DNA of 62,563 nucleotides from an uncultured virus (IMG/VR IMGVR_UViG_3300030333_002313) (IMGVR_UViG_3300030333_002313); one strand, 5' to 3'; shown: positions 15,227 to 58,597, counted from the stretch's first letter. Made by a program: numbers and translations. Notes: a model not told the origin generated them from the letters alone.

Positions 15227-15447
15227 AATTTGTTCTCCAAGTTAATAAGTAAGGATTTAATCTCTGATATCTCAGATTTTAGCACATCAAGTTCACTTTT
15301 CATAGTGTCTAATGTTGCATCCCTTTTCCTACGTGCTTTAGCAGCAGTGCCAGGGGGTGTCTCCTTTGTATTTAGTACCGCACCAGAATGGGTATCCCGT
15401 ACAAGTTCTGGTTTACCCTTTACTTGTAGGTATCTATTAGAGGTCAC
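15223..15447 (-). CDS. Small hypothetical protein following VrlC-like gene
   Basis: VKGKPELVRDTHSGAVLN plus C-terminal coiled coil LKSEISEIKSLL. Confidence 0.85.
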   Translation of the reverse strand: MTSNRYLQVKGKPELVRDTHSGAVLNTKETPPGTAAKARRKRDATLDTMKSELDVLKSEISEIKSLLINLENKL

Positions 15448-27799: not shown

Positions 27800-27806
27800 T
27801 ATTTAT
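27800..27806 (-). promoter_or_regulatory. Late promoter (ATAAATA) for the gp9-like gene
   Basis: Overlaps the upstream stop codon, about 25 nt before ATG 27775. Confidence 0.65.
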
Positions 27807-29551
27807 GTAAGGTCAAATTCATAATTAGTTAGGTCAAAACGTACATCATTTCTAGTAAAGTCTGGATTGTTATTGTCTCTATCAAATGGAATAGATGTCA
27901 TATCGAATTTACCAACAATACTGTCCCATTTCAGTACTGCTGAAGTGTCTTCGCCACTGGTACCACCAGTGACTGTAAGGATAACAAGGTTAGATGCAAG
28001 AGGTGAGTTAGATGCCTGTTGTGCTTCACCTAAAGGTCCAGTAACAATACATCTAAATCGATATCCAGTCATATATGCTTGTGCTAAAACTGAATAAGTT
28101 GAGCTATTAGCACCAGTTATATTAGCCCAAGCAAATCCACCATCAGTAGATACTTGCCATTGATACCCTTTAGTACCATCTTCAGGTTCTATAACAGCAA
28201 GTAAACTAAACTGTTGAGTACCACCACTAGCAATAGTTGCATTAGTAGGTTGATTAGTAATGATAATACTAGGAGTAGTTGGTGCACCTCCACCTTCTCC
28301 TCCTTCTTCACCACCTGATGATTCCTGTCCAATACCCTGATTTGCTGGTATATTTAGAGTTTCTTTAGAAGAAAGACCAAATATATAAGGGAATTTTGGT
28401 GTCATATAACGATTAGGTACTACCGTAATAGCACCTCCACCACTAGACATTCCCGAATGATTGAGGCAATAATAATATAAATTAGGTGCATCAGAAGGTA
28501 CAGTGATCTCTGTATATGCACCAGACTCACCTGCAGTACCAACAGATGTCACACCACTTGTATATTCAACTCCACCACTGTGTATACCATTCTCTGTTGT
28601 TGAGAATTTAATAGGGTGTGATAAATTAGTTGGATCTGATTGTATAAACCTATAAGTACTTCCTTGAATAAATGTTAAATTTGGATACAAGACTCCATCA
28701 AGACGATACTTATTACCATCATTCTCACTTGTAACTGTTACGACATATTCTTTGCTTTCTGTTTCGTCTCCCCAGAGGGTGATGAAGTAAGCAAAAGTGC
28801 CATTGGGATACTCAGGAGTATAACAAAAACGACCATTATAAACATCTAAATGCCTCCCTACTTTATCTACATTATATTCATAATCCTCCATTAATGCACC
28901 TTTAGGAGGATTTGCTGTTGTAGTACCATATGCAGGTCTATTAACAGCAATAGATTCTTTCATCTGATATCCAGTCTCCATTAAAACTACTGGAGAAGTA
29001 TTATCCTGTGGTAAATTATATCCATAAGGACCGTAAACAGGATAACCATCAAATGCAATACCTAAAATCTTAGAGTGTCCGTCAGGGTGACGCATATTGT
29101 CACCAACATACTGACTTAATCCATAGTAATCATTATAAGCACCCATCACCTGATTGGTTTTCCAAGCACCTATAAACTCACCGTCAATATAATGATATTG
29201 ATCATTAGCATTAGGACGACCACCAGCAGCATCATCACCAGGATTGTACATACCAAAAGCATCAGTAGCCACCCAATTAAATCCAGTTGGAGGACTACCA
29301 AGAGTACCTGCAGATGGATTATTTAAAACAACTCCATTAGCACTTATTCCAACAACACCTAGTGGTAAACTACCACCTGCTTGAGTGTTAGTACCACCTC
29401 TATATGTAAAAGCGTGACTAAAAGTATAAGACTCAACATCATTAGAATTGTTTGCATTAGGGAACGTACCCTTAGCAACGGGATTGGGTAAACCATCTCC
29501 CGTTACTGTGAGTACATCATTGCTTGGATTGTAACTACCGTTTGCTGCCAT
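27803..29551 (-). CDS. YHYH-domain structural protein with inserted cupredoxin-like and C-terminal Ig-like domains
   Basis: LGVVGISANGV, YHY, HSKILGIAFDGYPVYGPYG, LDVYNGRFCYTPEYPNG, LYYYCLNHSGM and ITNQP...YQWQ...YRFRC. Confidence 0.85.
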   Translation of the reverse strand: MAANGSYNPSNDVLTVTGDGLPNPVAKGTFPNANNSNDVESYTFSHAFTYRGGTNTQAGGSLPLGVVGISANGVVLNNPSAGTLGSPPTGFNWVATDAFGMYNPGDDAAGGRPNANDQYHYIDGEFIGAWKTNQVMGAYNDYYGLSQYVGDNMRHPDGHSKILGIAFDGYPVYGPYGYNLPQDNTSPVVLMETGYQMKESIAVNRPAYGTTTANPPKGALMEDYEYNVDKVGRHLDVYNGRFCYTPEYPNGTFAYFITLWGDETESKEYVVTVTSENDGNKYRLDGVLYPNLTFIQGSTYRFIQSDPTNLSHPIKFSTTENGIHSGGVEYTSGVTSVGTAGESGAYTEITVPSDAPNLYYYCLNHSGMSSGGGAITVVPNRYMTPKFPYIFGLSSKETLNIPANQGIGQESSGGEEGGEGGGAPTTPSIIITNQPTNATIASGGTQQFSLLAVIEPEDGTKGYQWQVSTDGGFAWANITGANSSTYSVLAQAYMTGYRFRCIVTGPLGEAQQASNSPLASNLVILTVTGGTSGEDTSAVLKWDSIVGKFDMTSIPFDRDNNNPDFTRNDVRFDLTNYEFDLT

Positions 29552-32500
29552 TAGTTGTCATCAAATATTTGATCTGGGGTGAAGTTATCAACTGTGGTAG
29601 AACCTATGTTGATTGTCAGTATGGAAGATTGAGATAGGGTTGGTGTAGCACCAAGTGATGTTAATCCGACTCTAAATTCATCTCCTCCGTCACCCTGAGT
29701 TGTAGCAGGTGTAGTATATGTTGGTGATGTAGCTCCGTTAATATTTATCCATTCATTAGTACCGTAATCCTTCTTCTGCCACTGATAGTTAATAACTCCA
29801 CCAGCAGGAGTTGTGGATGCGATTACAGTAAAGGAAGCAGTCTGACCTTGGTTAACTGTTGTGTTAACTGGTTGTGATTCAATAGTGATATATGATTCAC
29901 CTTGTGCTTCAGATTCACCTTGAGGAATGTAGTTAGGATCATAAATGTCAATACCACCATTAACACCAGCACCTGTAGGTCCTAAGAATGTTTCATCAAC
30001 TGTCGTATGAACATCTACTGAAGGTAGTACATAACCTTGACCAGCATTCTTAACATCAATACGTGCGAGACCAACTAATGCCTTGATCTTACCACCGAAA
30101 CCAGAGGAGGAAATCACATCAACTTGAGGACGTGATGTATAACCATCACCTGAATTTGTTAGAATTGCTTCAGTAATACGACCTCTCTCAATATTTGCAA
30201 GTGCTTGTGCGTTACGTCCACGTACAGATCCTGTATACTCGAAAGTAATTAGTGAGTTAGAAGACTCAATAAGAGCAACTTCTCTTTCAAATTCTTCACC
30301 CTCGATTGCTAGTTTGTCACCAGTTTCAATTGGAGGTACAACTGTTGCTGCGATAACGTCAACATCAGAACCAATGTAGGAGAATGCAACGAATGTAGAA
30401 CCCGCACGAGGAACTTCAGAGAAGATAATACGTGAACCAACAAGTTCAAAACCGATACCTGGTTCCTGTACAACACCATTTAACTGACAGATGATGTTGT
30501 TCTCAGGTCTGATAGTGTTAGACTGTACACCTTCAGTCAATGTTAGTGAGTAGAATACTCCACCTAACTTCAAGTTGAAGGAGTTACGTAATGAATCAAA
30601 GTCGAATGAGATATCATCTAATTGTCTCAACTTACCTACGTAAACACCGTGGAATGTTGAGTTAATTGCAGGTGCTTCAGTGAACTGAATGTTATCTGAG
30701 AATGCAGTGAATGCATTATTACCACCTGGAGGTTGTAGGATTCCATTCACGAAGATCATCATATGACCTGCAGGATCTGGGAAGTATGCAGTACCATTTT
30801 CAGTGGTCAACTTGAAGTCCTTAGTTTCTCCATCGAATCCTCTGAAGTACCTTCTAACACGTCCACGTAAAGTCTTAGCAACTGAACAAGCACCTCTGAA
30901 TCCATAATCACCAATAATCTGTGAGTTCTTCAAGAAGGTTCCAGCAGTATCACCAAGATGAATGATTGCACGTAGACCAATTTGCTCAATTCTCTCAATA
31001 CGTCCATATGCAGTTGTTGCAGTAATTACAACAGAAGAGATAGCGGATGTGTATACACTTGGGAAGTTAGATCCAGAAGGAATCTTAGCAAGTTGATAAG
31101 CAACATCACCAGCAATAACTGTTAAATCATCACCGATAGCAGAGAATCTACCTTCTTCATTTGCAAGGTAAACGTACTTGTTATCAGCATCGTGTTCAGT
31201 AACAACGAATGTGTGACCAACTGACTGACCTGCATTTTGAAGTTGTAGTACATCACCAACCTTAAATGTATCATCTACACCAAAGTCAGTAATTAATGAT
31301 GCATATTCAAATCTAGTAATCTCGGTAGAATGGATGTACTCACCAAATCCAGGCATAATATTAAATGCCTCAACTTCAATAATTTGATCAGTAACAGAAC
31401 CGTAGATAACATCTCCAACACCATAGTTACCAGTAACAGTCTCAATATCAAATGTTACACGACCTGACTGGTTATCAAGTAGAGCACCATCATTATTACG
31501 TACGATAAGTGCATTTGCTCTACCAGAATCTTGCTTACTGAATAATAGATCAGTTGCAATAAATTCACCCATTCTAAAGTTAACTAATATACGCTTATGG
31601 GTAGCATCACTAACAGTACCTTGAGCACCAGATGTTAATCCTTCAATATTATCTCCTTGTACAATGTTACCACCAGTAAGAACTAACTTAATGTAAGTAG
31701 CATTATCTGTTGCAAGGATGGTTCCTTTATTTCCTGTAGCACCAGTCTTAACAACTTCCTCACCATTAACAAATACTTCAGGATCGCTAGTAACTGTAAG
31801 TGGTAAGTAAATGACATTATAAAGAACCTTAGCCCAGTTATCTTGTATTCTAATAACTTCAGCATATGCACCAGTAGTATCACCGAAGAATATATCTGCA
31901 GGTTGTATACCACCAGCGATAGGTGTTGGTACATTACGCTCACCAAATGTTGATGGAGTACGATGTATACCAGTCTCATCAACTACAGATAATGTATGAA
32001 CTTGACCTGCTGTTCCTGGAGATAGTAATTCAATCTTATCACCATCAATATATTCTGAAATCCATATTAGATTTTCAGTAGTATCTGGGTGAATGAAATA
32101 TACTTGCCTGTCTAGTTCAGCAATAGCAGAACCTAGAACTGTATAAGTAACACGATCATATGCTTGGAATAAATGTCCATTAGGAGCATCAATAGAACCA
32201 TCAGTATTAACCATAGTTCCAACATTAAATTGGAACTTAAGATAAGCTGTAGGTAGAGTTGATCTCTCAAGTGCAACTTCAATTAAGTGGAATAACTGCC
32301 AAACCTTATGTTGTGCTGTTTCAGTAGGACGTAGTTCTCGATTCTCATATGGTACCTCTTGGTTATAAGGACCAGGATTATCTGCTTTTTGCTGAAGAAC
32401 TTTAAGTACCATATCTTTAACAGCAGCAGTATGATACAACAGATATGTTCTGAAGATATTAGGGAACGCTATGAAGTTACCCTCGGCATCAAACCAACTG

Positions 32501-35500
32501 TTAACTAATTCGAGAGTTTTGATATTACCATCAGTAATTAAGTCATATATCAATGCTTTACGGATATTAGTTGCGAATGATTCGTCTCCTGTATATCCAC
32601 CATAATTTTGCATAGTCTTGTAATATGATTCACGATCAATATACTGATCATTGAACCATATCAATCTTGCTGCCTGACGATACATTTCAGGTGCACGACC
32701 AAGTGTCATATTAATCATATCTGCTAATGTATTAGAAGCAGATACTACGTTATAACAAATACCACCACCAGATTGTAATGTATTAGTTTGAAGTGGAGCC
32801 TGTCTAAAGACAGATTGATTAGTAAACCAATTACCATTACCTTGAGCAGCAGTGTCAATAACATTAATTGGATAATTAAACAACTGTATTATTTGAGATC
32901 CAACAGCAGCACACTCACCATTACCAGCTTGATCATAAGTTATTGTTAAATCACGAATTGCAGCACGTTCACCTGTTAGTGGCCATTCACCTGGTAGAGT
33001 TCTAGTAATACCATTGATGTATGCTTCAGGATTACTTACACCAGAACCAAACAGATTGATAGGAATATTCATCAATGTAGTAATAGCAGATGCTTCATTG
33101 CTACAACGTGCAGCACCACCACCTGTATAAGAGGTAACAGCATTACTCTGAGAACTAATGAAGGTATGAGCATAAGCACCACCAGTGTGTACTGCTGCTC
33201 TTCTAATTCCGTGAGGAGTAGCACTCACAAATGTATGAGTTGTAGTGTTAGTAGAAGGAGCAGATGCTAGAACCTGTACAGTAAATGTGTCAGTTGTGAC
33301 GTTAGAAATCGTCATAACTCTATTACTGAATGGATCAGTTGGACGTGGATATGGGTGCTCAGTATTGTTACTATCTTCTAAGCAAGTAAAGACTAATGAA
33401 TAATCATCAAGGATAATTCCATCACCATTACTCCATCCGTGATCAGGAACTGTAACTGTCATAATACCTGTAGCAGGTAAGTATGAAGCATTAGTTACTG
33501 TCTTCTTAGTTGGTCCTTCAAATACGTGTGTATAAAGTCCACCACTACGTACTGCCATTCCCTTAGAACTTACATACTTGTGCTCATAAACTCCACCACC
33601 AAGTACTTGAGGTTTGGTGATTGAATTAGCAGCAGCAGACTGGAATACGTGAGTTGTAGTGTTTGTAGAAGGAGTTACATCTAATACCTTCACATCAAAT
33701 GTGTTAGTAGTTACGTTAGAAATGCGAAGCATTCTTCCAGATGCAGGGTCAGTACTACGTGGATAAGCGTGGTCAGATGCTTGACCATCTTGATCACAAC
33801 GGAAAGTTACTGCATTATCAGCAAGATAAATGTACTCACCTTCATAGAACTTATGATTATTAACAGTTAACGTAATAACACCTGTTGTTGGGTTGTATGC
33901 AGCACTGCTAGGTGTCCAAGTTGTCTGTTGATTGACGAAGTTATGAGTTGTAGTGTTAGAAGAAATACCAACGTTGATTGTAATTGTTCCATCAAGATGA
34001 TGAACACCATTAGAAGTAGCAGATACAAACTGATGAACTGTCTTATCAAGGTTAGCGTGTCCTACATATACATCAAAATCGTTTGTACCTACATTAGAAA
34101 TTGGTAGATACTCATCATATGAAGGATCATTTTGTCTTGGATATGAGTGAAGTGTTTCATTATCATCTCTAGCACAAGTAAATGTGATGGAATTTTCAGC
34201 CATCTTAATACTATCTCTTGCAACTTCAAGTCCACCAGTAGTTGCAGATACAAATGTATGAGCAGTCTGGTTAGAAATTGGACCTCTACCGAAGAAATTA
34301 CCAACGTTAACTTCAAATGTATTGGTACTTGCGTTAGTAACAACTAAGAAACGTTGAGATGCAGGATCACTTGGTCTTGGATAAGAATGGTTTGTAGCAT
34401 TACCATCTTGAGCACAAGTGAATGTAATAGAATTATCAGCAATTCTTACTCTGTCACCATTCTTCATTCCGTGAGCAGCACTTGTTATCCTTAACATACT
34501 GGTTGTTACATCGTAAGTAGCACCAGTTACTGTCTTTTGGAGAGAGGTAGTAAACCCGTGATTCGGTATGGTGAGATTCATCACACCAGTATTGGGGTTA
34601 TACTTAGCATTGGTTACAGTATGAGTAGTGTATCCAACTTGATCAATGTTAATTCCACGCTGATAGAATGGATCCTTCTTATGGATCATACCTCCAGAAG
34701 CAATTCCAGTATTGGTATGTGTGTAAATACCACCACCTCTGATTGCAGATCTTGTTATGCAATTAGCAGTACAAGACTTAAAGATATGTGTTGAAGTATT
34801 TGTAGAAGGTGCAGTCTCAAGAACCTTAACATTGAAGGTATCCTGAGTAACATTATCAATTACCATCCACTTATCCCAGAATGGATCTGTTCTTCTTGGA
34901 TAAACGTGATCACTAGCGTGACTATCTTTATCACAAGTGAATGTGAGTGAGTTCTCAGCAATCTTGATCATATCACCATCGTTATAACCGTGATTAGCAA
35001 TAGTCACAGTCATAATACCTGTAGTAGGATTGTAATTAATATCAGTTGGTGTCTTACCTACTTGCTGTATAAACTGGTGAGTTGTAGTGTTTGTAGAAGG
35101 TTGTGAAGCAAGAACCTGTACAGAAATTGTAGTAGGTGTTGTTGCAATAATAGGAACAGATGTCTGATAAGTAGGATCTCCTAAACGTGGATAGGTATGA
35201 TCTGTTTGATAGTTATCCTGAGCACATCTGAAGGTTAATGAATTAGCAGCAATACGAATCTTATGATCAGTAGTAAATTCGTGCTCACCAATCTCCATCT
35301 CCATAACACCCGAAGTTGGGTTGTAACTTACAGAGATAGGTTCAAATCCTGTGGTTGGTGTTTTACCAACTTGAACTTTAAATGTATTTGCTTGTACATC
35401 CTCTACTGGTAACCACTTACCGTAAGTAGGATCAGTAGCACGTGGATATGTGTGGCTTGAACCATTGTTATCCATTGTGCAAGTAAATGTAAATGCATTT

Positions 35501-38500
35501 AACTCAAACTTAACGAAGTCTCCATTAGAGTATCCGTGGTTGTTCAATGTTAGAAGCATATATCCAGTTTCAGGATCATATGATGCTGCTGTTGGTTGAG
35601 TTACTACAGTATTTGCTCTTGGATAAGTATGATTTGTTTGGTTGCTATCTAATCCACAAGTAAATGTTAATGAATCAGGTGAAATTCTAATATTGTCGTG
35701 CTTGTTAAAGTAATGGTTACCTATACCAAGTACCATTGTACCTGTAATTGGGTTGAAGTTAGCAGTAGAAACTGTATGTCCAGTTGAAGGAGTAGCACCA
35801 ACGTTAACAGTAACCCATCCAGTCTGTTCTTTTAATCCACCAGCAGTAGCACCAACAAATGTATGGGCAAAGTTACCACCACCAGCAATACCAACATTAC
35901 AGGTGAATGTATTAGCATCAGGTGTTGATAGAACTTCTAACCAATGTCCTGCTTCTGGATCATCTGCTCTTGGATATGTGTGGTTAGTAGCATTGCTATC
36001 CTTAGTACAATTGAATGTAATTGAATTAAGATCAAACTTAACTAAAGTAGGAGCAACGTGAATACTATTACCATTAGCTGCTTCGAATACGTGAATACTC
36101 TGATCAGAGATAGCACCACCTAAAGCATTTGATCCAACATTAACTGTGAATCTATTTCTAGATGCTTTCTTAACTATTAAGTAAGTTCCTGATGCAGGGT
36201 CAGTTGATCTTGGATATGGGTGAGTTGAACTGTATTGGTCTTTAGAACATCTGAATGTAATAGCACCATCATCGATCATTACACTATCACCAACAGCAAG
36301 TCTGTTGTCTGCAGAATAAACTTCCAAATCACCTGTTGCTGGATCGAACTTAGCAAAGGTTGGAGATATTGTACGCTTAGACTGGAATCCGTGATTATTA
36401 ATAGTTGCAGTTAATACACCACTTGTAGGAGTATAAGTTGCACCAGTAATAGTATGAGAGTTAGAACTTGACTCTTTTATTGTTAAAGCAGTGTTTCTAG
36501 CAGGGTCAGTTAGACGTGGATAAACGTGCTCAGTAGCGTGACTATCCATATCACAGGTGAATGTTAATGCTTCATCTGCAATCTTAATAGTAGTACCATC
36601 GATTAACTTATGAGCACCAACCTTAATCATCATATCGCCAGTTTCGCCATCATAATTAGCATCACCAACGCTATAGAATACAGCAGGTGTTGTACCAACG
36701 TTAACAGTAACAGAACCAGATTCTAGTTCTACACCATCCTTCTCAGCAGAAATAAACTTATGACTGTAATTACCACCAGTAGTTACACAATTATTTGTGG
36801 CAGATATAAATGTATGCTGAGTTACGTTAGTAGATGGAACAACTGGTAAAACGTTTAGAGTAATAGAAGTAGCAGTTGTACCTGTAATTTCTAAAGAGTT
36901 ACCATATACAGGGTCTTTAGACTTAATAATACAATTAGTTTCAGCACGAACGAATGTGTGAGTGTAGTTACCACCTGTTGTTATACAAGCAGGTACTGCT
37001 TCCTTAAAGATATGAGCAGTTGTATTAGAAGAGATACCAACATTAACTGTAATAGTATCATCCTTTTTAATAATTCCGTTAGATAGACCAGAAACAAATG
37101 TGTGAGTTGTAGTATTTGAAGATGGAATAGCATCTAATACTTGTACACTAAATGTAGTTGCATTTGGAACAGTAATAACTCTAATCCACTTATCACTAAT
37201 TGGATCAGTTGCTCTTGGATAAGGATGGTTAGAAGAATTACTATCTTCTAAGCAAGTAAAGGTTACTGCACCATCTCTAAACTTAACATAATCTCCAACA
37301 ACTAATCCGTGATTAGCAGATGTTGTTACCTCAAGAATACCTGTAGTTCCACTGTAAGTAGTACCACTAGCAGCAGTCATTGGAGTACCTTCGTACTTAA
37401 TGTTAACTGATGAATCGTATGTTTGGTCTTTCTTAGCAGTTAGAGAACCAGCAGTTGAAGAAACATAAGCGTGTGTGTAAATACCACCAGCTCTTACAAC
37501 ACATCTCTCAATACTATTAGCAACAGCACTTACAAAGTTGTGAGTTGTAGTATTGGTTGAAGGTACATTCTCTAGAACTTGAATACTAAAGGTATTAGCA
37601 TCAATGTATGTGATAGGAATAAACTTATTAGATACAGGATCTTTTGGTCTTGGATATGAGTGATTAGTTTGATCACTATCTTGACCACAAGTAAAGGTTA
37701 CAAAGTTATCATCAACTTTAATATGATCTCCATCTACCATACCGTGTCCAGTAACAGTAAGAGACATAACACCTGTTGATGGGTTATATGATGCTCCAGT
37801 TGGAGTTAACTTAGTAGGAGCCTGCCAAGTATGAGCAGTTGTGTTAGTAGATGGTTGTGAACTTAGAACTTGAACTGTAATTGTGTCTGCTGTAATAGCA
37901 GTGATTGGACAAGCAGTATCATAGAATGGGTCATTCTGAGTAGCACCACCTTGACCTGAAGCACGAGGATATGAGTGATCAGTAGCATAGTTATCAAAGG
38001 CACATTTGAATGTAAGTGAATTCTGAGAGAACCTTACAGATTGACCAACAGATAAATTATGTCCCTGTCCAATGGTCAATGTCATTAAACCTGTTGTTGG
38101 ATTGTAATCAACCATTGTTGGAGCAAATCCAACAGTAGGAGTCTTACCAACATTAACAGTAAATGTTGTAGCACCAGTTACATCAATCTCCAACCACTTA
38201 CCAGATGCAGGGTCAGTTGGTCTTGGATAAGAATGATTAGAACCATTACCGTCCATAGAACAGGTAAAGGTAATAGCATTATCAGCAAACTTAACTTTGT
38301 CACCATCCTGAAGACCGTGACTAGAAGCAGTTGTAACAGTCATTATTCCTGTTTCAGGATCATAAGAACCGTTATTGATATTTGCTACTGTATAAGTTGT
38401 ATTTCTAGGATAAGGGTGAAGAGTTTGATGACTATCTTGTGCACAAGTAAATGTAAGACCACCTTCAGCAATCTTAAGTGCAGTTCCTGCAGTAAGACTG

Positions 38501-41500
38501 TGATTACCAATGGTCATCTTCATATCACCAGTAGTAGGGGTGTAATCCACTGCTGTTGGTGTGAAACTTACTTTAGGTGATTCACCAACTTTAAAGGTAA
38601 ATGTATTTGTAGATACTGCTTCAATTCTCATCCAAGAATTGTTTGCAGGATCATCTTGTCTTGGATATGGATGCTCAGAAGCATTTCCGTCCATATCACA
38701 AGTCATCACAATTCCGTTCTTCTCAACGTGAACCATTTCACCAACTTTGAATCCGTGGTTAGCAACAGTAACAGTTAAGTGACCATTAACAGGATTGTAA
38801 GAAGCATCAGTTGGAGTAACAGTAGTTGTTTCAGCTCTTGGATATGTGTGGAAGGTAGCATCATCATCTTCCTTACAAGTAAATGTTAAGGAGTTAGGTG
38901 CTAACTTAATATGAGTACCAGTTGTTAAACCGTGTACACCAAGTACAAGTTCTAAACCACCTGTTTCAGGATCATAGTTTGCTTGAGATGGTGTGAAGTA
39001 TTTGATAGGAGTCTTACCAATACTCATCTCAAAAGTATTCTTAGTTACGTTTGAGATTGGTAGGAAACGTCCACTAGCAGGATCAGACAGTCTTGGATAT
39101 GTTTTCTTGCTGTAATGCTCATCCATATCACAAGTGAATGTCATAGAATCGTTAGCAAGTCTAATCTTGTCACCATTCTTAAATCCGTGATTAGGAACGG
39201 TAACATTCAACATACCAGTAACAGGGTTGAAGTCTGCCCAAGTTGCTGTATGGTGAGTTGTTCCAACTGAAACGATATCTAATGCTTTATCAACTGCTGG
39301 ATCAGTAGCACGAGGATACTTATGAATAGATCTATAATTATCCTGAGAACAACGATAATTTAATTCATCCTGAAGAATCTTAAGTGTTTGACCTTCTCTT
39401 AAACTATGAGATCCAATATCAAGAGTTAATAGACCTGTTTCAGGATCATAAGTAGAATCTTTAGCATCAAAATTAACTCTCTCTGTTATACCAACATTGA
39501 CTGTAATATCGTTACCACTTACGTTCGTGACGGGTAGTAAAGCAACAGCTGCTGGGTCGGAAATTCTTGGATAAGTATGTTGAGTCTGATGATCATCTTG
39601 ATCACAAGTGAATACAAGTGAATTTGTATTAATTCTAATTGTATCGTTAGTAGTTACATTGTGTGATGCACCTAAAGTTAAAACTAAATCACCAGTTGCA
39701 GGATCATAAGTTGCTGCTGTTGGAGTATGTTGACCAGATGCAGTTTGTTGATCGATAGTAATGTCATCATCATATACTGGATCACCTTCTGTATAACCAT
39801 TAGTAGCAACTAACTGTTGTCTCATTACTTGAATAGCAATATCTCTTGCTTGTTCAAATATATACTTAACTTCATTTGGTTGACCATTGATATGCTGAAC
39901 TGCATTAGAATCAGTAACATAGAACTCAGTGGCATACCACATCTTGTTATTACCACCGTGTGCTAAGTTGAATATCAATGCTTCTAAGATATCAACACAG
40001 TCATCAACACAGGACTGATAACCATATCCACCAAATCCTAATGATGGGTACTGAGAAACACCACGACCAACAGCAGTAGAAGCAATAAATCTTAAGTTAT
40101 TTCTAATTTCATCAGCAGCGTTATATGCCTTATTACCAGACTCATTATTATCATAATCACCACGTGCTGCACCACCTCCACCTTGGTTACCACCTTGACC
40201 ACCGCCACCGCCACCGAAGCCGCCACCGCCACCTTGACCGCCACCAGCTCCACCACCTGTAGAATAATCAGGGTAGGGATTAAACCCTAACTTGTTCTGG
40301 ATCGCCAAAGCAGACATATCCCTAGCCATCTTCATAGCAAAGGCAGTTTCTTCAGTCTCATCAGTAACGTGCTTCAGTCCATTCTCAGTATTCAGATATA
40401 ACATCGCTGCATCATAAGTTGCAGAGTTAGAATTGAATCTAAGGTCGTGAATGATAGCTTCGATAACGTCAACAATATCATCTTCACAATGATTCTTACC
40501 ACCTTTAACACTGAAGTGATAATGTTTAAATGCAGAACACTTAAGCATAAGATCAACTGCTTCACCTGCAATAGCACGCTTGTTAGTTTCAAGCATATCA
40601 GCAGCATCTAATGCTCTCTGAGAACCTGCATAGATTTGAGGATCGTGTAAGAAGGTAGGTTCAGTTGCCTGATCCTTACGGAATGCAGGGAAATCTGTAT
40701 ATTGGAATTGGAAGAAGTCGTCAATAGTTTGAGCAGTTGTACCAGCAAGATTTGCAAGGTTTTCACTACGTCCAACTAAAGCATTCTGTAGTGCCTTCTC
40801 CATCAACATCTTAGAGTAACCAATTGCATCAAGCATTGGAAGTAATTCTTCTTCAACTTGAATGATCTTACCTGTAGAATCTAAGTATTGATCAATAATA
40901 CCTTGAACGTTAGCATTACCACCAGTTAATAAGTCACCAGCAATAGCAGGTATAATATGATCTCTAAGGTCACGAACACACTTATCACGACCTGGAGTAC
41001 CACCAGGAATGTCAAACTTATCTTCCTGAATGAAGTTAATAGTTACGTTATACTGTTCTTCTAACCAGAAAGCAACTTCATCAGCGATACACTTACGGTT
41101 GAAGTATAGTAAATCAGCACCATCTCTAAATCTGTTACCTGTAGGACCAAGAACTAATAGTAAACTATCTACTAGATCAGTAATAAAGGTCTGTATACTA
41201 GCAGATGCAGGAGATGAGAAGTAGTTAGGAATACGAATACGTGTTGTATGCTCACCAGTTAGGTCATCAGCATTAGCAGTAATAACAGTATTGCAAAGTT
41301 TACCAACTTCTCTCCAAGCATAGATGGATTGAAGCAATTCTCCGTTAACGTGTGCTAATTGTCCTTCTTGGTTAGCAAGATAACCTCTTGCAGCAACGAT
41401 ACTATTAAAGTTACCACCATACCTTAGATCATTAACGATAGCAGGTATAATGTATTCATAAGTATCTCTTAAGCAAGTTTGTGTACCTTGATCTGAAGTA

Positions 41501-44500
41501 CCAGTATCACCAGGTATCACAAAGTCAGGATACATAGCCTTCATTCTACCGACTGCTTCTTCAGCAATCCAATACTTGTTCTTGTCAATAATATCTGCAC
41601 AATCAACATAATCATCACGAGAAAGATCAACTCCCTCAGTCATAATCTCATCACGCCATAGTTCTACACCCTCAGCAGTAGCAGTAGAAGTTATAGTTTG
41701 TTGGAATGTAGCATAAATTTCACCCTTAATAATAGGAATAGGTGCTTCACCATTAAATCCAAACTTAAGATTTATATCTGTATCATCATAAGTTCCACTA
41801 GGAGTAAAGTCGCTAGTATAATCAACAGCAGTAGAACCTAACTTAATCATTAGGTTCTCCATATTACCTGTAAATGCCTGAGCATTAGCAGCATTAGCAC
41901 CAATCTTAACTGGCATATTGCCATAATTGGTGTTATCAGTATAAGTTGTGGTTTGCTTAGTACCACCAACGTACATATTTGTAGCACCACTATTTCTTAC
42001 GATAGCGATATGAGTCCAAGTATTTGCTGCTAGATTTGCACTTGATGTTATTCTGTCAACATTACCAGTGTTCCAACGAACAGTGTTATTGACCATAATC
42101 AAGTAAGCAGAACTTGTATCACCAGTTGAAGTACGGAAATCTAATAATGTTTGGTTACCACTAACACCTGTTGCTTTAACCCATAATTCTATAGTGAAGT
42201 TACCATCAGGAATAGATCCATCACCAAATGCAACTTTCTCAGTAGATGGATGTGTTAGATATGCACTACCATTAAATTCAAGAGATCCAGCACCAGCAGC
42301 ATAATCTAAATTATCTACAGTTACGTTAGTATTAACTAAAAGACTATTAGTAATGTATTCTCCATCAGAGAATGGACCAGTTGGATTCTTAGTATAGATC
42401 CACTTATTACCTGCATTAGAACCGATTATTTCAGCAGTATTTCCAGATGTTATACCTTTAACAATTTCACCGAAGACAAAGAATCCACCAGAAGACTTAT
42501 CTTTATAAGCGTGCTTAATAGACTTAAGTGTCTCAGAATCACTGAATGAATATGGAGGTGCAACTCTAGTTACATTTGAAATAGACCAAGGATAAGTTCC
42601 AGGTGCAGCACCAGTTGGATCCTGTATTGAATCAGTGATAATTGCAAAGTAATTAGTAATAGCAGATGTTACGTTTACACAAGCAGTTGTAGAAGGATTT
42701 GCCATCAAAGCAGTAGATGGTTCAGTCTTCGTTGTTCCAGCTTGGAATGCTGCTCTAGTTCCAGGTGATGCAGTAGTACCTAGGGCATTAATCAGAATAT
42801 TCGCTAGGGTGGTTATTGTTGCAGCAGGTGCCTGACAAGCAGGAGATGCACCATCAGCAGTAATACCACTATCAGTAAATTGTGTCCAACCGTGTGAAGT
42901 ATCTTGCTTGGCATATACAACGTTCCTCTGAACATCAATTGCTATATCTCTTGCCTTAGTAAAGGCATCTACCATAGTATCGATATCACCAGTTACAGTA
43001 CCATAATGAAGAATACGATCTGTTGCTTCCCAAACAAAGTCATTACCACCAACAGCAGTGTTATATGCAATTGCTTCAACAACATCAACTATATCTGACA
43101 AGCAATGTGAGTCACCACCAGATACTGTATAACCAGGATTCTGTTGTTTAGCATAGTACAATGCTTCGTGAGCGATATACCACTTGTTAGCAAGTAATAG
43201 TGCTCTAGCATCAGCGTGACTATTATCAGTTACACTATACTCACCAGTAACAGTTAAGTCTCTCCACTGCTGTAATGTAGTAAATGAAGTATCAATATCC
43301 TCCATTCTTATGCACTGGAGTGCTAAGTCTCGTGCTTTATTCATTGCCCAAACTGTTTGAGCTTCAGCACCATCAACGTGATATACAGTGTTACCTTGAA
43401 CGTAAGTATTAGCAATATCCCAAACTTCAGAGTTACCATCAAACTCTAACTGCCAAGCCATCATATTGATAGCATCTACAATATCATCTTCACAATCTGC
43501 GTTTCTACCAGTATTGATTTGGAAGGAGGGGTAGAAATCTAACATTGCTCCCACGGCTTCTTCAGCGATAAATCTCGCATTACGCTGCAAAGCGTTAGAA
43601 GCATCATTAAGACGTACATCGTGAGTCCTTCTTAGAGATGAATTACCAAAGTAAATCTTCTTAAGACGAATGTCAGAACCAGCAGCAAAGTCGGTACCAG
43701 TTAAATTGTCATAACGTATCTCTTGGTTACGAACTCTCTCAAAGTCTAGGAAGTCTTGGTTATTAGCTGTCTCAGGATCATATAGTTCAACAGGGTTAAT
43801 AACTGTTTCTGATATGTTATCGAGTATCTTATTAGGGAAGGTAATAGAAGGTACCCTCTGGAATACTAATCCAAAGAAGGAAGAACTAGGTGATAGGTCT
43901 ACCTGATCAATAATTTGGTTAGATATATCATCCTGATAAGGTGCAATACTTGTAATAGTTGCTGCAATCTTAGAACGTGCAGAATAAATGATATCATTGA
44001 ACTTGATATTAAATTCACCAGTCTCATACTTAGCAGTACCAGAAGTACGTGAAAGAACTAGTTCATTAGTAATAACACCATCTTGTAAGTTATTCTCTTC
44101 AACAATAGCAAAATTACCAGCCAAATTAGTGATTCTCTCACCTTGTTCGAAGATAGTCTTAGAAGTTATAGGAGAAACATCACTTAAAGTAGAATTGAAT
44201 CCAGTCTGTGAACCCATTATACTTTCATTAAGTTGGAAGGTTCCTTGTATGTCAATAACGTCAATATAGTCAACACCTGAATCTATGCAAGTTGCAGTTG
44301 CTTCTGATACCAAACCACGAACAGTATTACCTAAAAGTGGGAAAATACCACCAATAGAACTGAATGTCATTCTAGTGATTACTTTCTGAGCATAAACTGC
44401 TTCACGGAACTTAATTCTAGAAGGTGCTTTAGGTGCTTCAGTAAAGACAACAGAAGGTCCAGCTGTTGAGAATGCAGTACCTGGTGACTGTGCAACACCA

Positions 44501-47500
44501 TTAATCAAGATAAACATCTGATTATCTGCTGCAGTTATGGAACTACCTTCTACATTAAGAGGGAATTGGGTTTTAATTCCATCAAAGTCATCAGAGATGT
44601 TATCAATCTTCTTAACGATAGAGGTTAAGATTTCCTCTGAGTTAGTTAATCTCTTCTGTCTGAACAGTACCTCAGTATTATTAAACTGAGTATAAATGGG
44701 TTGTGCGTTAGCAAATGATGTAATTTGATTAATATTAGTGAAACTATTGATATTAACTTCTTTAATAAGGTCAGATACAACCTTTCTTCCAGAAATATCC
44801 TTACCACCAGTGATTGCTAGTTCACCGAAGAGGTTGAAACCAACAGGGTGGTTTGTTTCTAATACAGGCTTTCTCCACTGGTTAATAGGTGTTTGAGACT
44901 TAATAACGTATGAGAAGTTCTGATAGAAGTAAGAATCTTGTATTTTTTGAACAATTTCAGATGGTTTACCAACGTCATCAATAAATTGACCAGGAGTATT
45001 GGTTAGAGAAGCAATATTCAGTGTACCAGTAGCGATTGATAGGTTATCAATCAAACCAGAAGCACGAGAAACTTCACCAGTTACCCTTTCACCAGCCTTC
45101 CAAACACCATCATAGTTCTCAAGTTTAAGGATTCTAGGTCCAATCTGCCAACCTTCGTTAGTAGAAACATAACCAGTAGCAGATGCAAGTTCAAGAGATG
45201 AACCTTGATAAACAAGTTCACCTGCAAGGAATCTAGAAGTTTCAACGATAGCAGTTGCTTTACCACCAAATACCTCGGTGAGTAGTACCTGTCTACCTTC
45301 ACCTTGAGTCAAGAATGTGATATAAGAACCAGATTCAGCATCTAACTTGGTTAGAGAGATACGTAATTGGTCTGATTCAAGTGAATTTGCTTCACCAGCA
45401 ATAGCATAGTATGTCTGATTTGAGTTCAAGCTAACCAAACCTGCAGAACTAGGTTTTGGAAGAATACCTACGGTTGATCCTAGGTCTTCTGCTCTTAACT
45501 GAACTTCAGCACCAGTTGTGATACCGTGTGGGAAGTTGAACTGTAAATAACCTAAATCAACGTTAACAACGTAGTTAAATTCTGATTTAAGTGTAACTGA
45601 AGGTTCAGAACTGTATCCTGAGCCAGGATCCTTAATAATAACCTCAGAAAGACGATTATTCTTAACAATTGCTTCTGCCTTAGCACCTGATCCACCACCA
45701 CCTTCAATTACAACAGCAGGAACTGAAGTATATCCAGCACCTGGGTCAGTTATCTTGATCTGTGCTAGTAAAGCGGTATTAAACAGCTGAAGGTTCACAG
45801 GGAAAGTTATTTCAGGTCTTAACGTATAATCGTGAGAATAACCGAAACCAAACTCATTATTCTTAAGTTTCTTGATCTTACCAATAGATTTACCTTGTAA
45901 GAACACAGAAGCACCCGATCCTTCATCAGGAATCACAACATCTAATATTGCACCAGAACCTGCAAGTAGAGGTCCTAGGATACCTGGTATAGCATCTACA
46001 TCAATAGAAGCAGTCTTATAACCTTTACCTGCTGAAGTTAGAGTAACATCAGTGATAACACCTTCAAAGTCTCCGTCATCTTGAACAGTGATGTTACAAG
46101 TAGCACCTTCACCATCTCCATCAATAGGAACGTTATAGTAAACACCATTTACGTACTCAGTACCACCATTTGTGATTCTAACCTTCTCAATTTCTCTGTT
46201 AGAAGCAATATCAGTAACAATTGGTAGTCTCTGATAGAATCCACCTGCATTTACAAGTTTGATATCAGATATTGGACCAATTGCCTTAACTGAGGTTGTT
46301 GAGTAAGAAGAACGAGCATTGCCAAATTCATTATTACCAACAGGAGCATTTGTCTTTTCAGGTTCATTTAATAGTCTAAAGGCGAATTTTTTACCAGCAT
46401 CGGTTACAGAAGTAACTCTGAATGTGCCATCATAAGGAGATTTAATAACGTCAATGAAGGATCCTTCTCCAACTGGTGAATCTGCACCTGTTCTAGATGG
46501 GTCAAAGTAATATGAAATATTAGTAACATCCTCATTAATGACGAATTTAACCAACGGAGTTGGTGAATCATCATCAGTAAATCCAGGTGTACCCTCTCTA
46601 ATAATGTTAATGAATGGATATTCCAGTTTATACTGGTTATCTCTAGAGAATGATAGGAAGTATCCAAGGTTAGATTCATCATCAAGGTCAAATATGTACT
46701 GATGACCTCTAACAAAGAGGAATTTAGGATGTTTTGCGTAGATATTAACGTTAGATACTGAATTTCCACTACCAGCAAAGGTTGGATCCTGTACAGCAGT
46801 ACCTCTCATACGGAATGAGAAGTCTCTTGAGTTAAAGACCTCTTCTACGAAGAACGAACCATTATAGTCATTTGTAGCAAAGTTCTCTGTAAATATGATC
46901 TCATTTTCTACAAAATTGTGTCTACTAGAAGCAGAACAGTAAACAAGGTCAGTATTTACTAATGCACCACTAGGAATTACGTCCTTATTAAGTTGTGCAA
47001 CCAAGGATATCTTCTTAACACCAGTCAAACCAGTGAATGTTGCTATCTTACCAGTTTCATCAACAGTAAACTGAAGGTTGACAGCATCAGCGTCAATAGT
47101 ATCTCCTTTAATAAATGATGAATCTTGATATATCTCTTCAATCTTAATAGTATAATCTTCTGGAGAGAATGGCTTCCAAGATGCAAAAGCACTCATTGTA
47201 GAACCATTATATGAAGTATCTGCAAGATCTATCTCATATATGCCAGATGCAGAAAGATATGCCCAAGAAACAGCACCATCAGATACAATACCAGTTGTAT
47301 GTGTAGGTGGAATAGTACCAGATGTACCAGGAGAGGTACACTGATATAGCTTCTTATCGTTATAAACTATGTCTTCTGTAGCATATACAAAGTTAGTTGC
47401 CCAAATTGGATCGGTTTTTTGCTCTGTAAAGTTCCATTCAAGGTCATTTACATCATTAGCAGTTGATTTTAATAGTTTTGAAGTGTCAAAATTACCTGCA

Positions 47501-50500
47501 ATCTTACCAATCTTGCAAGAATTGGTTCCAGATTCAACAATTGTTCCATATGCAGATACAACATCGTTACCACCAATTACAGAATACTGTTGTAATATTG
47601 CTCCTTTAGTGAAAGTAGCGTCCTGATTGAAGTTAATTGTCTTAACAAGGTCAATTAGAGCATATTTTGCATCTCTAAAGTAGAATTTTGGTACAACAGT
47701 CGTTGTAAGAAGCAGTTTCTTACCACCAGGAGTCGGAATAGTAGCAGTTCTATTACCAAAATTCTGATCTGTTGATGTTACCGTGAATATACCAGGTTGA
47801 TGTGTAGAAACAACATCACCATAATCAAGAATTTGAATACCTGCAGGACCAAGAACCCAAGGATTCATTGCTACGTTCTGGGTATTAAACGTATAATTGC
47901 TCTCAGAGGCGATATTGAGAGTATGTCCTGTCTCAACATCATTAAGATTAAAGGATCCTAATGCTGTCTTGTCTTTATCAACCTTATAAATGAATCCTTG
48001 TGCAATACTATTAGTACCAGTAACTAAAGCAGAAGTAAATGTATCATCATACTTAGCAGTAGGTGAGACAACTAGGTTATCAATCCATCCAATCCAATTA
48101 TTTGTTGCGTTAGGAGTTGAATTAGATCCAAGTGTTACATCTTTAAGGTTAATATCAACTGTTGTACTTGTAAGTACCTGTGTTTCAATACCATTAACAT
48201 ATACACGATACTTGTAATCACCAACACCTACACGATCTTTAACTAAAGCAACGTGAATAAACTCCTCGTTATTAAAGATTGCTAGGTAGTTTGCAGCAGT
48301 GGAGAATGTTGTAGTACCAGTTATATCAATCCAAGTCTTACCATAGTTGGGACTTGTCTGATCTGCATCAAGACCAGCTTTAACTGTATTACCTATAGCA
48401 TCAGTTACAGTGAAGAATTCTGGTTTTGTGTTAGCAGCAGTATACTGAGCAGTTGAAAGTGCCCAAAATGCTTCTACAGTATAGCTTGTAGCAACATCTG
48501 ATCCATAGAGCATCGTCATAGCATTAGATGCATCTAGTTTTACTGAAGAAGCACCATCATACTTCTTAGTATCATCAATTACAGCATTACCAGTTGCATA
48601 CCACTGTTTGTTAGTTCCAGTAGCAAGAGTGTCATTATATGTGTCATCAGCAAGGTTATCAGCAGTATTCCAGTTAAATATCGCTAACTGATCTGCTTCT
48701 ACCTTATTACCAACAACAATTGTGTCACCAGAACTGTCGTTAGATACAGCAATTGCTTTAAATCCAATACCATCAGTCTCACTTGCAGTTGAAGCAGTAA
48801 TTACTGTACCTGTATTCCAACCAATTTTAAGAGTAGTGGATTCAACTTGATTAAATGCTCTTTCTACAGAACAAGATACATCAACATTACCAAAGATATC
48901 AAACTCTACACCACCATTATGAACAGCATTATAGGTTCCAGTAGGAACAAATATTCTACTTTGCTCAGCTTCTGTAAAGTCACCATCATCAAACTTGGTG
49001 TATAAAACACCATAATCCTTACCATTAGTATCTTCTGCTGTAGCAGTTACATATACAGCACCATATTCATCAATGGTGAATGTTGGGTTCTTAAACTTAT
49101 AACTGGCATTAGTGATCTTTTTAGACCATACAACCTCAATAGTTGCAGTATCATAATAAGTTTCACCAATTATGATGTCAGATGTATTATCAGGTTCAGA
49201 TACACCACAGAATAGGAAGGTATCCTTAGATTTCCACTTAATTTGATGTAAATGCTCACTAACTTCTGCAGAAGCAATCTTACGCTTCTCCATCATAGAT
49301 CCATCAAGATCTAATAATGCAACCCACATATCATCTGGTTGCAATGAGTTAGCATCGGTATAACCACCGATCATACATCTACCGTCTTGATCTAATGAAA
49401 TGGTAGTTGCATAATCTCTTCTTGTAGCACCAGAGATACCAGCAATATCACGTTGCCACTGAAGAATACCATCAGGGTTATTATTACCATCAAATCCTGA
49501 AGTATACTTAGCAACAATAATATCTGGGTTATGAGTAATATTTGTGATGTTAGTAACTGTCTCACCAATTACGTAGATATTGTGAGGATTACTATTCTCA
49601 ACATATAAAGACTTCCATCTTAGTGATTTTGCACCAGCAGGTACTGTAGGTACTAGAGTTCTCTGCCAAAGTAAGCGACCATCACTATTAAACTTAGCAA
49701 GAATACCACAAGTATCACCATCAGTAAGATTTCTTTCAGCTGCAACGTAGATAGTACGATCTTCAGCAACTTTAACGTCATTTATAGAAACAGTACCAGT
49801 TGCTTCTTTCAAGAATGATAAGAAGTAATTTGCCTTCTTATATCTCTGTGGATGTGATACACGAATCTTAGGTGGGTTATCTACGTCATATCCAGAACCA
49901 GAGTTGATTATATTTGCTTTTTTAACGGCACCTGCTTCGGTTCTTTCTAAAGTTAACTTGAAATCTTGTCCAATAGAAGAAATAAGTTCATATGTTGGAG
50001 GAAGTTCAGAAGAATAACCAACACCTTCCTGAGTAATGTTTAATTGCTCAACACCAGCAATAACCTTAACTTTAAGAGTTTTATTAGTGTCATCAAGAAC
50101 AGGTGTACTCTTAACGATAATTTCATCATTAACACGTAATTCGTGTTCTTCAGCAGTTGTAATCTGTCCGTAAGGTACGTCATTAGTCATATAAGACGAA
50201 TAACCTGCTATATCAAGACCTTTAACTGAATTGACCTTAGCAGATGCACCAAATCCTTGTGTGTCTGTATTATCAAAATATAGTTTGTCACCAACCTTAT
50301 AAGAAACACCTGGGTTCTCAACAACAAATCCATCAACCTGAGCATCCTCAAACTTGGTAGTAGTCTCAATATCAATATCCACCTCAGATCTTGTAGAGAC
50401 TCTAGGGTAGTAATCAAATAATTGTAATACGGGTTCTTCAGCGATATTGATTGGTGTAGTATCTTCAAGGTTATTGATTACACCGTCTCTATTAGTATCT

Positions 50501-58063: not shown

Positions 58064-58597
58064 CTATGATGCTAACACATTTGGACTGCCAAATGCAACC
58101 ACTGATGAACAAGGCCAACTTTTACCTGGTTTTCCATAACCAAGAGGATCCATAATACGTCCTATTGGGATCTTGAATGCTAGAACTTGCTTTGTAGTAG
58201 CATAAAGGAGTCTCCAGTGTCCTTTACCCATCATATCCTCAGTTGTAATAAGACTGCAAACAGTTGGTGTAGGAACAATACAAGTTGCTTTACCACAGGG
58301 ACAAAGATAATTGATAATATTGGTTGTTGGCGATAAATGTGGTATAAATTGATCACCAAAGATCATAATTGGTAAACCATTTACTAGAACCGTTGCCCTC
58401 TGAGGGTTTAGAGCAGTAAGTGGGGTAAGTGGCATAGGAGGCCACATACAAGTCTTCTCCTTAACAACTATAGGCAGTTGAATCGGTGGAGTACCGCAAG
58501 ACTGTGTACTATGTATTGTTGAAGGAATAGGCACACCGTGCCCTGAACAGGGTAACCCATTATGGTGTGCAACTGGTCGTAAGAGTCCTAATGCCAT
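58064..58597 (-). CDS. PAAR-like baseplate spike tip protein (gp5.4-like), extended
   Basis: CSGHG, TVLVNGLP, GD...H, GH, IGRIMDP and C.S.VAFGSPNVLA motifs. Upstream of g25. Confidence 0.8.
   Translation of the reverse strand: MALGLLRPVAHHNGLPCSGHGVPIPSTIHSTQSCGTPPIQLPIVVKEKTCMWPPMPLTPLTALNPQRATVLVNGLPIMIFGDQFIPHLSPTTNIINYLCPCGKATCIVPTPTVCSLITTEDMMGKGHWRLLYATTKQVLAFKIPIGRIMDPLGYGKPGKSWPCSSVVAFGSPNVLAS

Follow-up and report, generated by a model that had tools for sequence, protein, structure and literature searches.

A partly self-nested array of 21 related units in a giant protein at the gp7 position of a T4-like cyanophage

The gp7-position gene and its repeat unit

In this work we have examined a repeat array in a giant gene of an uncultured virus (IMG/VR IMGVR_UViG_3300030333_002313), following up a preliminary description that had been made from the DNA alone. 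The whole stretch analysed, 62,563 nucleotides long, is referred to below as the window. The entire array is carried by a single open reading frame (ORF) on the minus strand, 29551..55341, which encodes a protein of 8596 amino acids (aa); window positions 33126-39735 correspond to its residues 5203-7406. The protein is a presumed virion protein at the gp7 (baseplate wedge) position of a T4-like cyanophage. Its gene is located within a T4-type baseplate gene cluster: a gp6-like gene (55369-57453) and a PAAR-like gene lie upstream, the gp8-like (27803-29551), gp9-like (26114-27775), gp10-like (24227-26110) and gp11-like (22656-24191) genes lie downstream, and the neck genes and the large terminase are found further on. 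Among the PHROG profiles, the protein matches phrog_2885, 'baseplate wedge subunit', with 1024.5 bits and phrog_708 with 220.3 bits; these strong baseplate-wedge matches are located in its N-terminal third, and 'virion structural protein' profiles match as well. The Pfam family Baseplate_wedge reaches 16.4 bits, under the cut-off of 27. Relatives of the protein are annotated as 'virion structural protein', gp7 or 'baseplate wedge initiator'. When the array region was compared with phage records by tblastn, 361 records matched. Their names all refer to Synechococcus (281), Cyanophage (49), Prochlorococcus (22) or Marine virus (9), and the genes hit carry the annotations gp7, structural protein, tail fiber or YapH. 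Cultured relatives with the array in their gp7 are found, for example, in the S-SSM7, P-SSM4 and S-RIM8 lineages. The corresponding megablast comparison gave only two 88-base matches. In the nearest record (G001) the unit is confined to an ORF of 8598 aa.

The array itself, residues 5203-7404 (33130..39735; all array features described here lie on the minus strand), consists of 21 copies of one unit, each 85-127 aa long. The preliminary description had recognized 21 copies of a unit of about 105 aa with ordered parts A to E, and our alignment of the 21 units agrees with this, adding an optional sixth part, F ('GGxYxHxF'); the 21 'xYPR' cores that we counted equal the number of units. The array contains 21 D, 14 E and 7 F elements, each assigned to a unit, and the units accordingly come in three lengths, seven of each: short (A-D; units 1, 2, 3, 5, 7, 11 and 15), medium (A-E; units 8, 10, 12, 13, 16, 18 and 19) and long (A-F; units 4, 6, 9, 14, 17, 20 and 21). 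A short unit is followed by a linker of the form 'x-TP-x-x-x-F/Y' and then by the next unit, which constitutes a tandem link. All 21 units, rejoined where they are split, align at the conserved Y-x-P-x-TG, G, H, F-x-C-x-x-D, H-x-YPR, DP and V-x-V positions. The Cys of FxC, the Asp at +3 and the His residues of HxYPR, of HGF and of the E strand are (nearly) invariant across all units (33130-39735), and these Cys, Asp and His positions could be a candidate metal site. In some relatives a 'C-T-H-G' pattern stands in place of the conserved Asp. The unit belongs to a small family, with 735 matches at E<=0.001 and 539 at E<=1e-10 among 1.84 billion representative proteins, and NCBIfam holds no family that matches a single unit, a nested pair or the whole region. 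Within the protein the reciprocal best partners are units 7 and 15 (57% identity), 8 and 16 (54%), 6 and 14 (46%) and 2 and 11 (43%), a pattern which points to duplication of an already nested block.

Split units and their order in the chain

We made a search profile from the four longest contiguous units (9, 17, 20 and 21; 124-127 aa) and ran it on the whole protein. It found 26 stretches, every one within residues 5205-7403, and the partial stretches pair up by complementary profile coordinates. The halves of unit 4 are residues 5449-5504 (profile 3-58) and 6140-6204 (profile 56-125), those of unit 12 are 6296-6322 (3-29) and 6434-6504 (32-103), and those of unit 18 are 6906-6931 (2-27) and 7043-7115 (30-104). 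Unit 4 had been the example chosen in the preliminary description, stopping at HTYPRAE and resuming several hundred residues later, and it was read correctly: the unit breaks off at residue 5504 and picks up at 6140, 635 residues later. The gaps between the profile matches hold the C strands 'DQTYDSSVNI' and 'DPFYQRGINI', the D strands 'SVTVNVG' and 'WVTVNVG' and the F element 'GGLYTH'. Residues 5203-7404 tile exactly into 31 pieces, which make up the 21 units with no residue left over. Fourteen units are contiguous and seven are split, at 10 breaks, by whole inserted copies in the inter-strand loops. It had been proposed at the outset that a profile be used to see if the host pieces rejoin once the guests are excised. 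All seven rejoined units gave one continuous profile match over their joints, with scores of 59.9-109.1 bits (unit 4, profile 3-125, 109.1 bits; unit 6, 2-125, 87.9; unit 18, 2-103, 104.3); the ten contiguous units which were left out of profile building score 72.8-119.7 bits. Guests start to match the unit profile at position 2-6 and continue to 80 or beyond, and the complementary pieces of the hosts match that profile too; a guest is an entire domain from its host's own family.

The order of the pieces was read with a stack parser, which holds a unit open only when a later piece continues it. With the guests of each host in brackets, the tree obtained is 1,2[3,4[5,6[7,8,9,10]]],11[12[13]],14[15,16,17,18[19],20],21. 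The chain begins with the contiguous, short unit 1 (39472..39735) at the top level and enters unit 2, the host of units 3 and 4, whose first piece (A-C) lies at 39259..39471 (hidden Markov model (HMM) positions 6-73) and whose second piece, the D strand SVTVNVG, comes back after 846 residues at 36682..36720. Unit 3 (39007..39258) is contiguous and short. Unit 4, which hosts units 5 and 6, consists of an A-B piece ending in HTYPRAE (38830..39006, HMM 3-58) and a C-F piece starting with KSKDPVYGNSLEI (36721..36924, HMM 56-125). Its first guest, unit 5 (38575..38829), is contiguous and short; the other, unit 6, is itself the host of units 7-9 and 10 and is divided into an A-B piece (38395..38574, HMM 2-59), the C strand KKDQTYDSSVNIKYEG (37387..37437) and a D-F piece (36925..37065, HMM 82-126). 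All guests of unit 6 are contiguous and lie at depth 4: the short unit 7 (38134..38394), the medium unit 8 (A-E; 37816..38133), the long unit 9 (A-F; 37438..37815) and the medium unit 10 (37066..37386), which is inserted between C and D of its host.

Unit 11, the host of unit 12, has an A-C piece (36469..36681), placed by the parse and the AlphaFold2 (AF2) model described below, and returns as the D strand WVTVNVG (35788..35829). Unit 12 is split into an A piece ending in NHGF (36376..36468, HMM 3-29) and a B-E piece (35830..36057, HMM 32-103; the rejoined unit matches HMM 3-101), and encloses the contiguous, medium unit 13 (36058..36375) at depth 3. The most fragmented copy is unit 14, the host of units 15-17, 18 and 20, with four pieces: A-B (35611..35787, HMM 2-58), the C strand KKDPFYQRGINIDQVG (34633..34680), D-E (33928..33996, HMM 83-96, or 75-101 in a second search) and F, GGLYTHVF (33511..33549). 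Its contiguous guests are the short unit 15 (35350..35610; best partner unit 7), the medium unit 16 (35062..35349; best partner unit 8), the long unit 17 (34681..35061) and the long unit 20 (33550..33927), the last of which is inserted between E and F of unit 14. Unit 18 is also a guest of unit 14, with an A piece ending in NHGFT (34549..34632, HMM 2-27; also modelled with AF2) and a B-E piece (33997..34224, HMM 30-104) on either side of unit 19 (34225..34548), a contiguous, medium unit at depth 3 and the one which matches the FCCH and endosialidase barrels. The contiguous, long unit 21 (33130..33510) stands at the top level at the end of the array.

This parse has seven split units, 10 breaks and a depth of 4, with no violations and no unclosed units. 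The host pieces close in last-in-first-out order; the deepest path is 2>4>6>7-10, while 11>12>13 and 14>18>19 reach depth 3, the guest in these cases being a host itself. When the 31 pieces were put in random order, a consistent parse was obtained in 1 of 20,000 permutations, and when only the 17 pieces of split units were shuffled among their slots, in none of 20,000. The complementary profile coordinates, the last-in-first-out parse and these permutation controls together uphold the earlier observation that units break off and that their missing parts return in reverse order. The main chain runs through five units only (1, 2, 11, 14 and 21) and the other 16 are branches, eight of them carried by unit 2, two by unit 11 and six by unit 14.

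Could it be that all 21 units are opened and later closed? The preliminary description had given a balanced expression of the form 1[2[3[...]]], with a depth of 9 and every opener matched. This full recursion has its attractions, since a short unit which ends in VxVG and runs straight into the next one could be mistaken for one interrupted after D, and a few breaks in relatives do occur at profile positions 83-87. However, only 10 returning pieces are available for the 21 units (31 pieces less 21 openers). Units 1, 3, 5, 7 and 15 (A-D) and 8 and 16 (A-E) have no later pieces at all, and the 14 E and 7 F elements each follow their own D or E or else serve units 2, 4, 6, 11, 12, 14 and 18. After unit 9 only three hosts close, namely 6, 4 and 2, and nothing unit-like is present past unit 21. 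In addition, the AF2 model of unit 11, which has only parts A-D, is confident without E or F. The depth is 4 rather than 9 because the short units which had been taken as open are complete and followed in tandem, and we regard full recursion as having next to no chance of being correct. The stacked closers named earlier must be divided in the same way: GGLYTHVF is a genuine return (unit 14), and GGVYEHKY and GGAYAHTF are parts of units 20 and 21, both of which are contiguous.

The breaks are found in four loops, after HGF (units 12 and 18; two breaks), after YPR (units 4, 6 and 14; three), after the C strand (units 2, 6, 11 and 14; four) and after E (unit 14; one). Four of the five insertion sites proposed in the preliminary description are therefore used, and the fifth, 'after VNVG', is the end of short units. 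All ten inserted runs in the array end in a unit with E or E-F, and a short unit is never the last. Over 120 related proteins, E or F was present in the last unit of 386 of 444 runs, compared with 99 of 169 earlier units, an odds ratio of 4.7 whose significance is inflated by relatedness. Short units do serve as guests in the FxC...YPR loop of relatives, which makes an ending with E or F a tendency and not a rule. We infer that the extra strands return the chain beside the entry point of the run, as inserts require. The interpretation of the fragments as circularly permuted tandem repeats was rejected because complete units flank every fragment.

Relatives and predicted structure

The same tree is present in all eight relatives that have the full array (L001, L002 and L004 with 95-99% identity, L008-L011 with about 80%, and P0002); four further close loci are truncated at contig ends and so are without the full array. 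The comparison of topology between orthologues, which had been suggested as a check, accordingly gives the same tree at about 80% identity. Between our protein and the orthologue in L009 (about 80% identical), 2202 residues aligned with 3 gap positions, and the identity of the split units was 83.1% (n=7) versus 80.2% for the contiguous ones (n=14). The split units are as conserved as the contiguous units and so are not decaying remnants.

A filled and an empty insertion site can be compared in two pairs of relatives. P0045 and P0054 are 83% identical, and a whole unit of 99 aa fills the FxC...YPR loop in P0045, while the host is contiguous in P0054. Similarly, in L020 a whole unit of 106 aa is located right after 'ANHGF', where L044 has the uninterrupted 'ANHGFSNGDYIQ'; these two were compared with 67% identity over 229 aligned positions and a single gap. 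L044 was also one of the six rows of other topology removed from a 17-row alignment before a second AF2 run. The grammar of the sequence is shown directly by the proteins, as are its conservation and the polymorphism of the insertions. Might the partial units nevertheless be truncated repeats which decayed after messy recombination and act as linkers without reassembling? Repeat arrays of phage fibre genes do recombine often, the trees differ widely between relatives, and the reassembly in three dimensions is predicted only. Yet the pieces complement each other exactly and close in last-in-first-out order, the invariant residues are retained, conservation between orthologues does not distinguish split from whole units, the host is intact and contiguous where a site is empty, and the outer pieces are modelled with high confidence (see below). 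Decay of this kind appears very unlikely to us.

In 137 related giant proteins and loci we parsed 2027 units, 604 of which (roughly 30%) are split. A naive repeat finder will miscount the unit because a third of the copies are discontinuous. The breaks in relatives cluster at profile positions 27-33, 45-46, 58-60, 71-76, 83-87 and about 101-106, and the maximum depth is 1 in one of the 137, 2 in 40, 3 in 51, 4 in 34 and 5 in 11. A clean case of depth 5 is found in P0079 (residues 1324-2161), with complementary coordinates of 74|74, 75|74, 55|53 and 29|27 at the successive levels; P0015 (residues 2650-3239) is another relative which nests deeper than the present array. One hot spot of the relatives is not used here: within the FxC...YPR loop, at profile 45-46, there are about 65 breaks (for example, P0045 residues 3188-3412), and this loop is often occupied by a short A-D unit. 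We also noticed one lineage (P0007, P0014, P0016, P0017, P0029-P0032, P0036-P0038, P0072, P0075 and P0078) with a regular four-unit super-repeat, in which the third unit hosts the fourth (1,2,3[4],5,6,7[8],...), repeated 4 to 7 times. This super-repeat is a nested block duplicated in tandem.

Two subtrees were modelled, as the preliminary description had recommended, and both gave confident AF2 models. For 18[19] (residues 6904-7115, 212 aa) the alignment contained 33 natural nested pairs with the topology A, whole unit, B-E, taken from the window, the loci and stored proteins. The mean predicted local distance difference test score (pLDDT) was 90.4 and the predicted template modelling score (pTM) was 0.83. 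The N-terminal outer piece has a pLDDT of 89-95, the guest lies between short strands at 31-33 and 135-137, and the strands of the outer unit correspond one-to-one with those of the inner unit. The model of 11[12[13]] (residues 6221-6518, 298 aa; 38 rows, 11 of them three-level) had a pLDDT of 90.5 and a pTM of 0.82. Here the returning D piece of only 14 residues forms a strand (pLDDT 95/81), and the insert is bracketed by two 11-residue strands, 66-76 and 283-293, which may be read as a two-stranded ribbon bearing the guest. In both models the outer pieces have a pLDDT of at least 84, and all break sites fall between predicted strands. The models thus predict that the distal halves reassemble. 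Independent models of cyanophage proteins in BFVD superpose on the whole two-domain model, with a TMq of 0.82 for M4SQ89_5, a TMq of 0.79 and a TMt of 0.85 for A0A8S0HX46 (197 aa) and a TMq of 0.83 for the S-SSM7 'baseplate wedge initiator'.

It is conceivable that a half is completed by something other than its own partner, through a swap with the neighbouring guest, some other unit or a further copy of the protein in the six-fold baseplate, which would give an interlocked mesh and not a tree. The contacts in the AF2 models are inferred and not seen, and all A-B halves are homologous, so that the partner is not set by the sequence family. The two halves of unit 4 (5446-5504 and 6140-6207), when predicted as separate chains, for each of which an alignment of its own was used, scored 0.36 (median of three runs), the best of three controls being 0.00. 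In the calibration of this approach 116 of 157 solved complexes and 2 of 215 mismatched pairs attained the mark, and scores of 0.60 or less were found for 18 of the 157 solved complexes and for both passing mismatches. At least 87% of the contacts agreed between the runs and the partner pLDDT was at least 52; this is weak support, which we counted as evidence neither way. Against swapping, the adjacent units are complete and offer no free edge, the single-chain pTM of 0.82-0.83 indicates a confident intrachain arrangement, and strands of equal length flank the inserts. Swapped halves therefore seem improbable to us, and reassembly within the tree is preferred.

What kind of fold does the unit have? 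The two-domain model was compared with 48,161 chains in a VIA fold search. Among the 50 matches listed, the best was E1 FCCH (4p22_B, Z 8.1, root mean square deviation (rmsd) 2.8, 78 aligned), followed by the phi92 endosialidase barrel (4hiz_A, Z 7.7, rmsd 2.3, 83 aligned, 19% identity); a further match on the FCCH side was 2v31 (Z 6.6), and other six-stranded barrels were listed further down. The only Pfam matches of the unit are weak ones to the corresponding families, E1_FCCH (PF16190) and End_beta_barrel (PF12195), and the nearest named ESM Atlas cluster agrees with the fold search. For PF16190 the matches in a 4297-aa piece sum to 34.4 bits (cut-off 29.5) and no single stretch passes; no match above the gathering score extends over most of the domain, the best stretch covering positions 3-25 of 70. 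Two of 14 single units matched E1_FCCH at E<=1 (best 1.2e-4), and one of 14 matched PF12195 (E 0.0038). Judged by its model, the unit is similar to the beta-barrels of E1 FCCH and endosialidase, and no convincing family match was found in Pfam or NCBIfam. When the profile was run against PDB sequences, an iota-carbonic anhydrase (E 3e-4, 23.8 bits, with no stretch passing alone) and a chloroplast NDH subunit (E 0.27) appeared, and both were taken as chance matches.

Interpretation and neighbouring modules

We consider it quite probable that residues 5203-7404 are 21 paralogous small beta-barrels, partly self-nested four levels deep, with the host halves rejoining around their guests. Each barrel would have seven core strands formed by parts A-D and, optionally, an eighth and a ninth formed by E and F. 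Whole units or short tandem runs would sit in the inter-strand loops, where the halves of the host would meet around the guest. Such an array may have originated when whole units were repeatedly inserted at, or precisely lost from, a small number of permissive loops and when blocks that were already nested were duplicated; unit 6 and its guests 7-9 would be the counterpart of unit 14 and its guests 15-17. On the wedge protein the barrels would then form a rigid, branched cluster. The preliminary description had envisaged a branched arbor, and its core idea, recursive insertion of the same domain into loops that gives a branched and not a linear chain, is supported by the sequence grammar, the unchanged tree of the orthologues, the polymorphism and the AF2 models; the specific tree with its depth of 9 is not.

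Several points weigh against this interpretation. For the relatives, 216 violations and 75 unclosed units remained after the 2027 units had been parsed, and since both profiles and parser were derived from the present protein, the family-wide counts are rough. The contact between distant outer halves is deduced from pLDDT, pTM and strand patterns, and the AF2 alignments were made of sequences picked because they parse with the same topology. All 50 listed matches of the VIA search fall on the contiguous inner unit 19, so the fold evidence covers the inner unit and not the split outer one; a Z of about 8 is middling and, according to the tool's own note, typical of the best matches for models without a clear relative. 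Foldseek gave no match in the PDB at E<=0.001 (best E 0.046, probability up to 0.99). Finally, the virion location of the gp7-position protein is assumed from synteny and annotation, and any role of the barrel array is putative.

As for that role, we tentatively propose, as one possibility which may well be wrong, that the rigid branched cluster decorates the periphery of the baseplate and serves in multivalent adhesion to the cyanobacterial surface. Adhesion is suggested because the barrel resembles a carbohydrate-binding phage domain and because lectin-like modules (Laminin_G_3) are present in the same protein. Alternatively, the cluster could be purely for scaffolding or spacing.

The remainder of the 8596-aa protein contains further modules. 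A YHYH domain (PF14240) is located at window positions 50731-51174 (residues 1390-1537, E 5e-29) and the concanavalin-like Laminin_G_3 domain at 41845-42243 (residues 4367-4499, E 2e-18). Upstream of the array, at about 40300-43700 (residues ~3880-5190), there are several helical modules, in which motifs like 'FIAEEAV ... C-x-DD ... GGN' occur; repeats were not found in this helical region by self-BLAST. A weak Pfam match to Phycobilisome (PF00502) at 41452-41610 (E 0.001) falls short of the cut-off; many homologues carry this family as a precomputed match. Between the helical modules and the array of barrels lies a glycine-rich run of low complexity, GGGAGGGQGGGGG...GGGGGGQGGNQGGGG (40171-40257, residues 5029-5057). 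The last ~100 residues (~8480-8577; 29611-29904) match phrog_613, 'head protein', with E 9e-10 and resemble an Ig-like decoration domain ('YQWQ...'). Two further giant ORFs are present on the same strand, 8702-14929 (2075 aa, phrog_697, structural protein) and 15437-22651 (2404 aa, phrog_358, unknown function); the barrel unit was searched for in both and found in neither. A PAAR-motif protein of 177 aa (phrog_281; 58064-58597), next to a protein of 1253 aa, is encoded upstream of the gp6-like gene.

Known systems and meaning of the array

T4 gp7 has about 1000 aa. The present gene has the same position between gp6-like and gp8- to gp11-like genes; however, its product has 8596 aa, and the barrel array and most of the other modules have no counterpart in T4 gp7. 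In its predicted model the unit appears similar to the six-to-eight-stranded barrels of the E1 FCCH (PF16190) and of endosialidase (PF12195). Each of these two is itself inserted in a larger host domain, and the endosialidase barrel has sialic acid as its ligand. Both are single guests in unrelated hosts, though, and not self-nested arrays.

Closer in architecture is Si3 of the cyanobacterial RNA polymerase beta' subunit. In its crystal structure, distant segments of the chain come together to make four of the eight sandwich-barrel hybrid motifs (SBHMs) (PMC10895346), and an ECOD survey (2026) describes Prochlorococcus rpoC2 with eight domains, a six-level recursive insertion and hosts with several inserts (PMC13114784). 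Here, too, copies of one small beta-rich domain are recursively inserted in each other. The differences are that Si3 belongs to a transcription enzyme and our array to a phage virion protein, that the best fold matches here are FCCH and endosialidase barrels, with no RNA polymerase beta' chain among the 50 matches listed, that our array has 21 units, compared with 8, and uses 4-6 distinct insertion loops, and that the trees vary between relatives, with filled and empty sites. Insertion of one domain into another is in itself frequent, and nested cases have been described. A partial parallel is RrgA, the pneumococcal pilus adhesin, in which D3 is inserted in D2 and D2/D3 in D1, and separately made halves of D2 associate (PMC5333627). 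It is likewise a three-level nested insertion in a surface adhesin, but its domains are of different families and it is three-level, unbranched and bacterial.

The preliminary description had stated that no such deep recursive architecture was known in a phage protein. This holds for phage proteins in the open-access literature, where we found no account of recursive nesting of the same domain, and the part of Sullivan et al. 2010 (PMC3037559) that was covered does not mention the repeat. It does not hold in general, since the recursion of Si3 has been solved (PMC13114784, PMC10895346). Same-fold recursive insertion is already known from Si3, and what would be new here is its occurrence in a phage virion protein.

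The array would represent a second natural system of deep same-fold nesting after Si3 and a much larger one, with about 2000 units in the relatives. The naturally filled and empty sites let the rules of insertion be read from sequence, that is, which loops are tolerant and where the termini are placed. A large part of the cyanophage 'gp7' of 5,000-8,600 residues is likely to be a branched cluster of barrels and not a fibre, which would alter the interpretation of baseplate densities and of possible receptor-binding surfaces. Perhaps self-insertion of one beta-barrel serves as a generative grammar in marine T4-like cyanophages, in which a small set of permissive loops allows any copy to host any other, a short unit means 'continue', E/F means 'return', and ongoing gain and loss of units rewires a rigid, branched arbor of dozens of barrels per baseplate. 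This is a speculative proposal, and we hold it with slightly more doubt than the adhesive role. If it is true, the grammar would be a way, undescribed for viruses, to diversify the shape and valency of a host-recognition organelle while the length of the load-bearing main chain stays constant.

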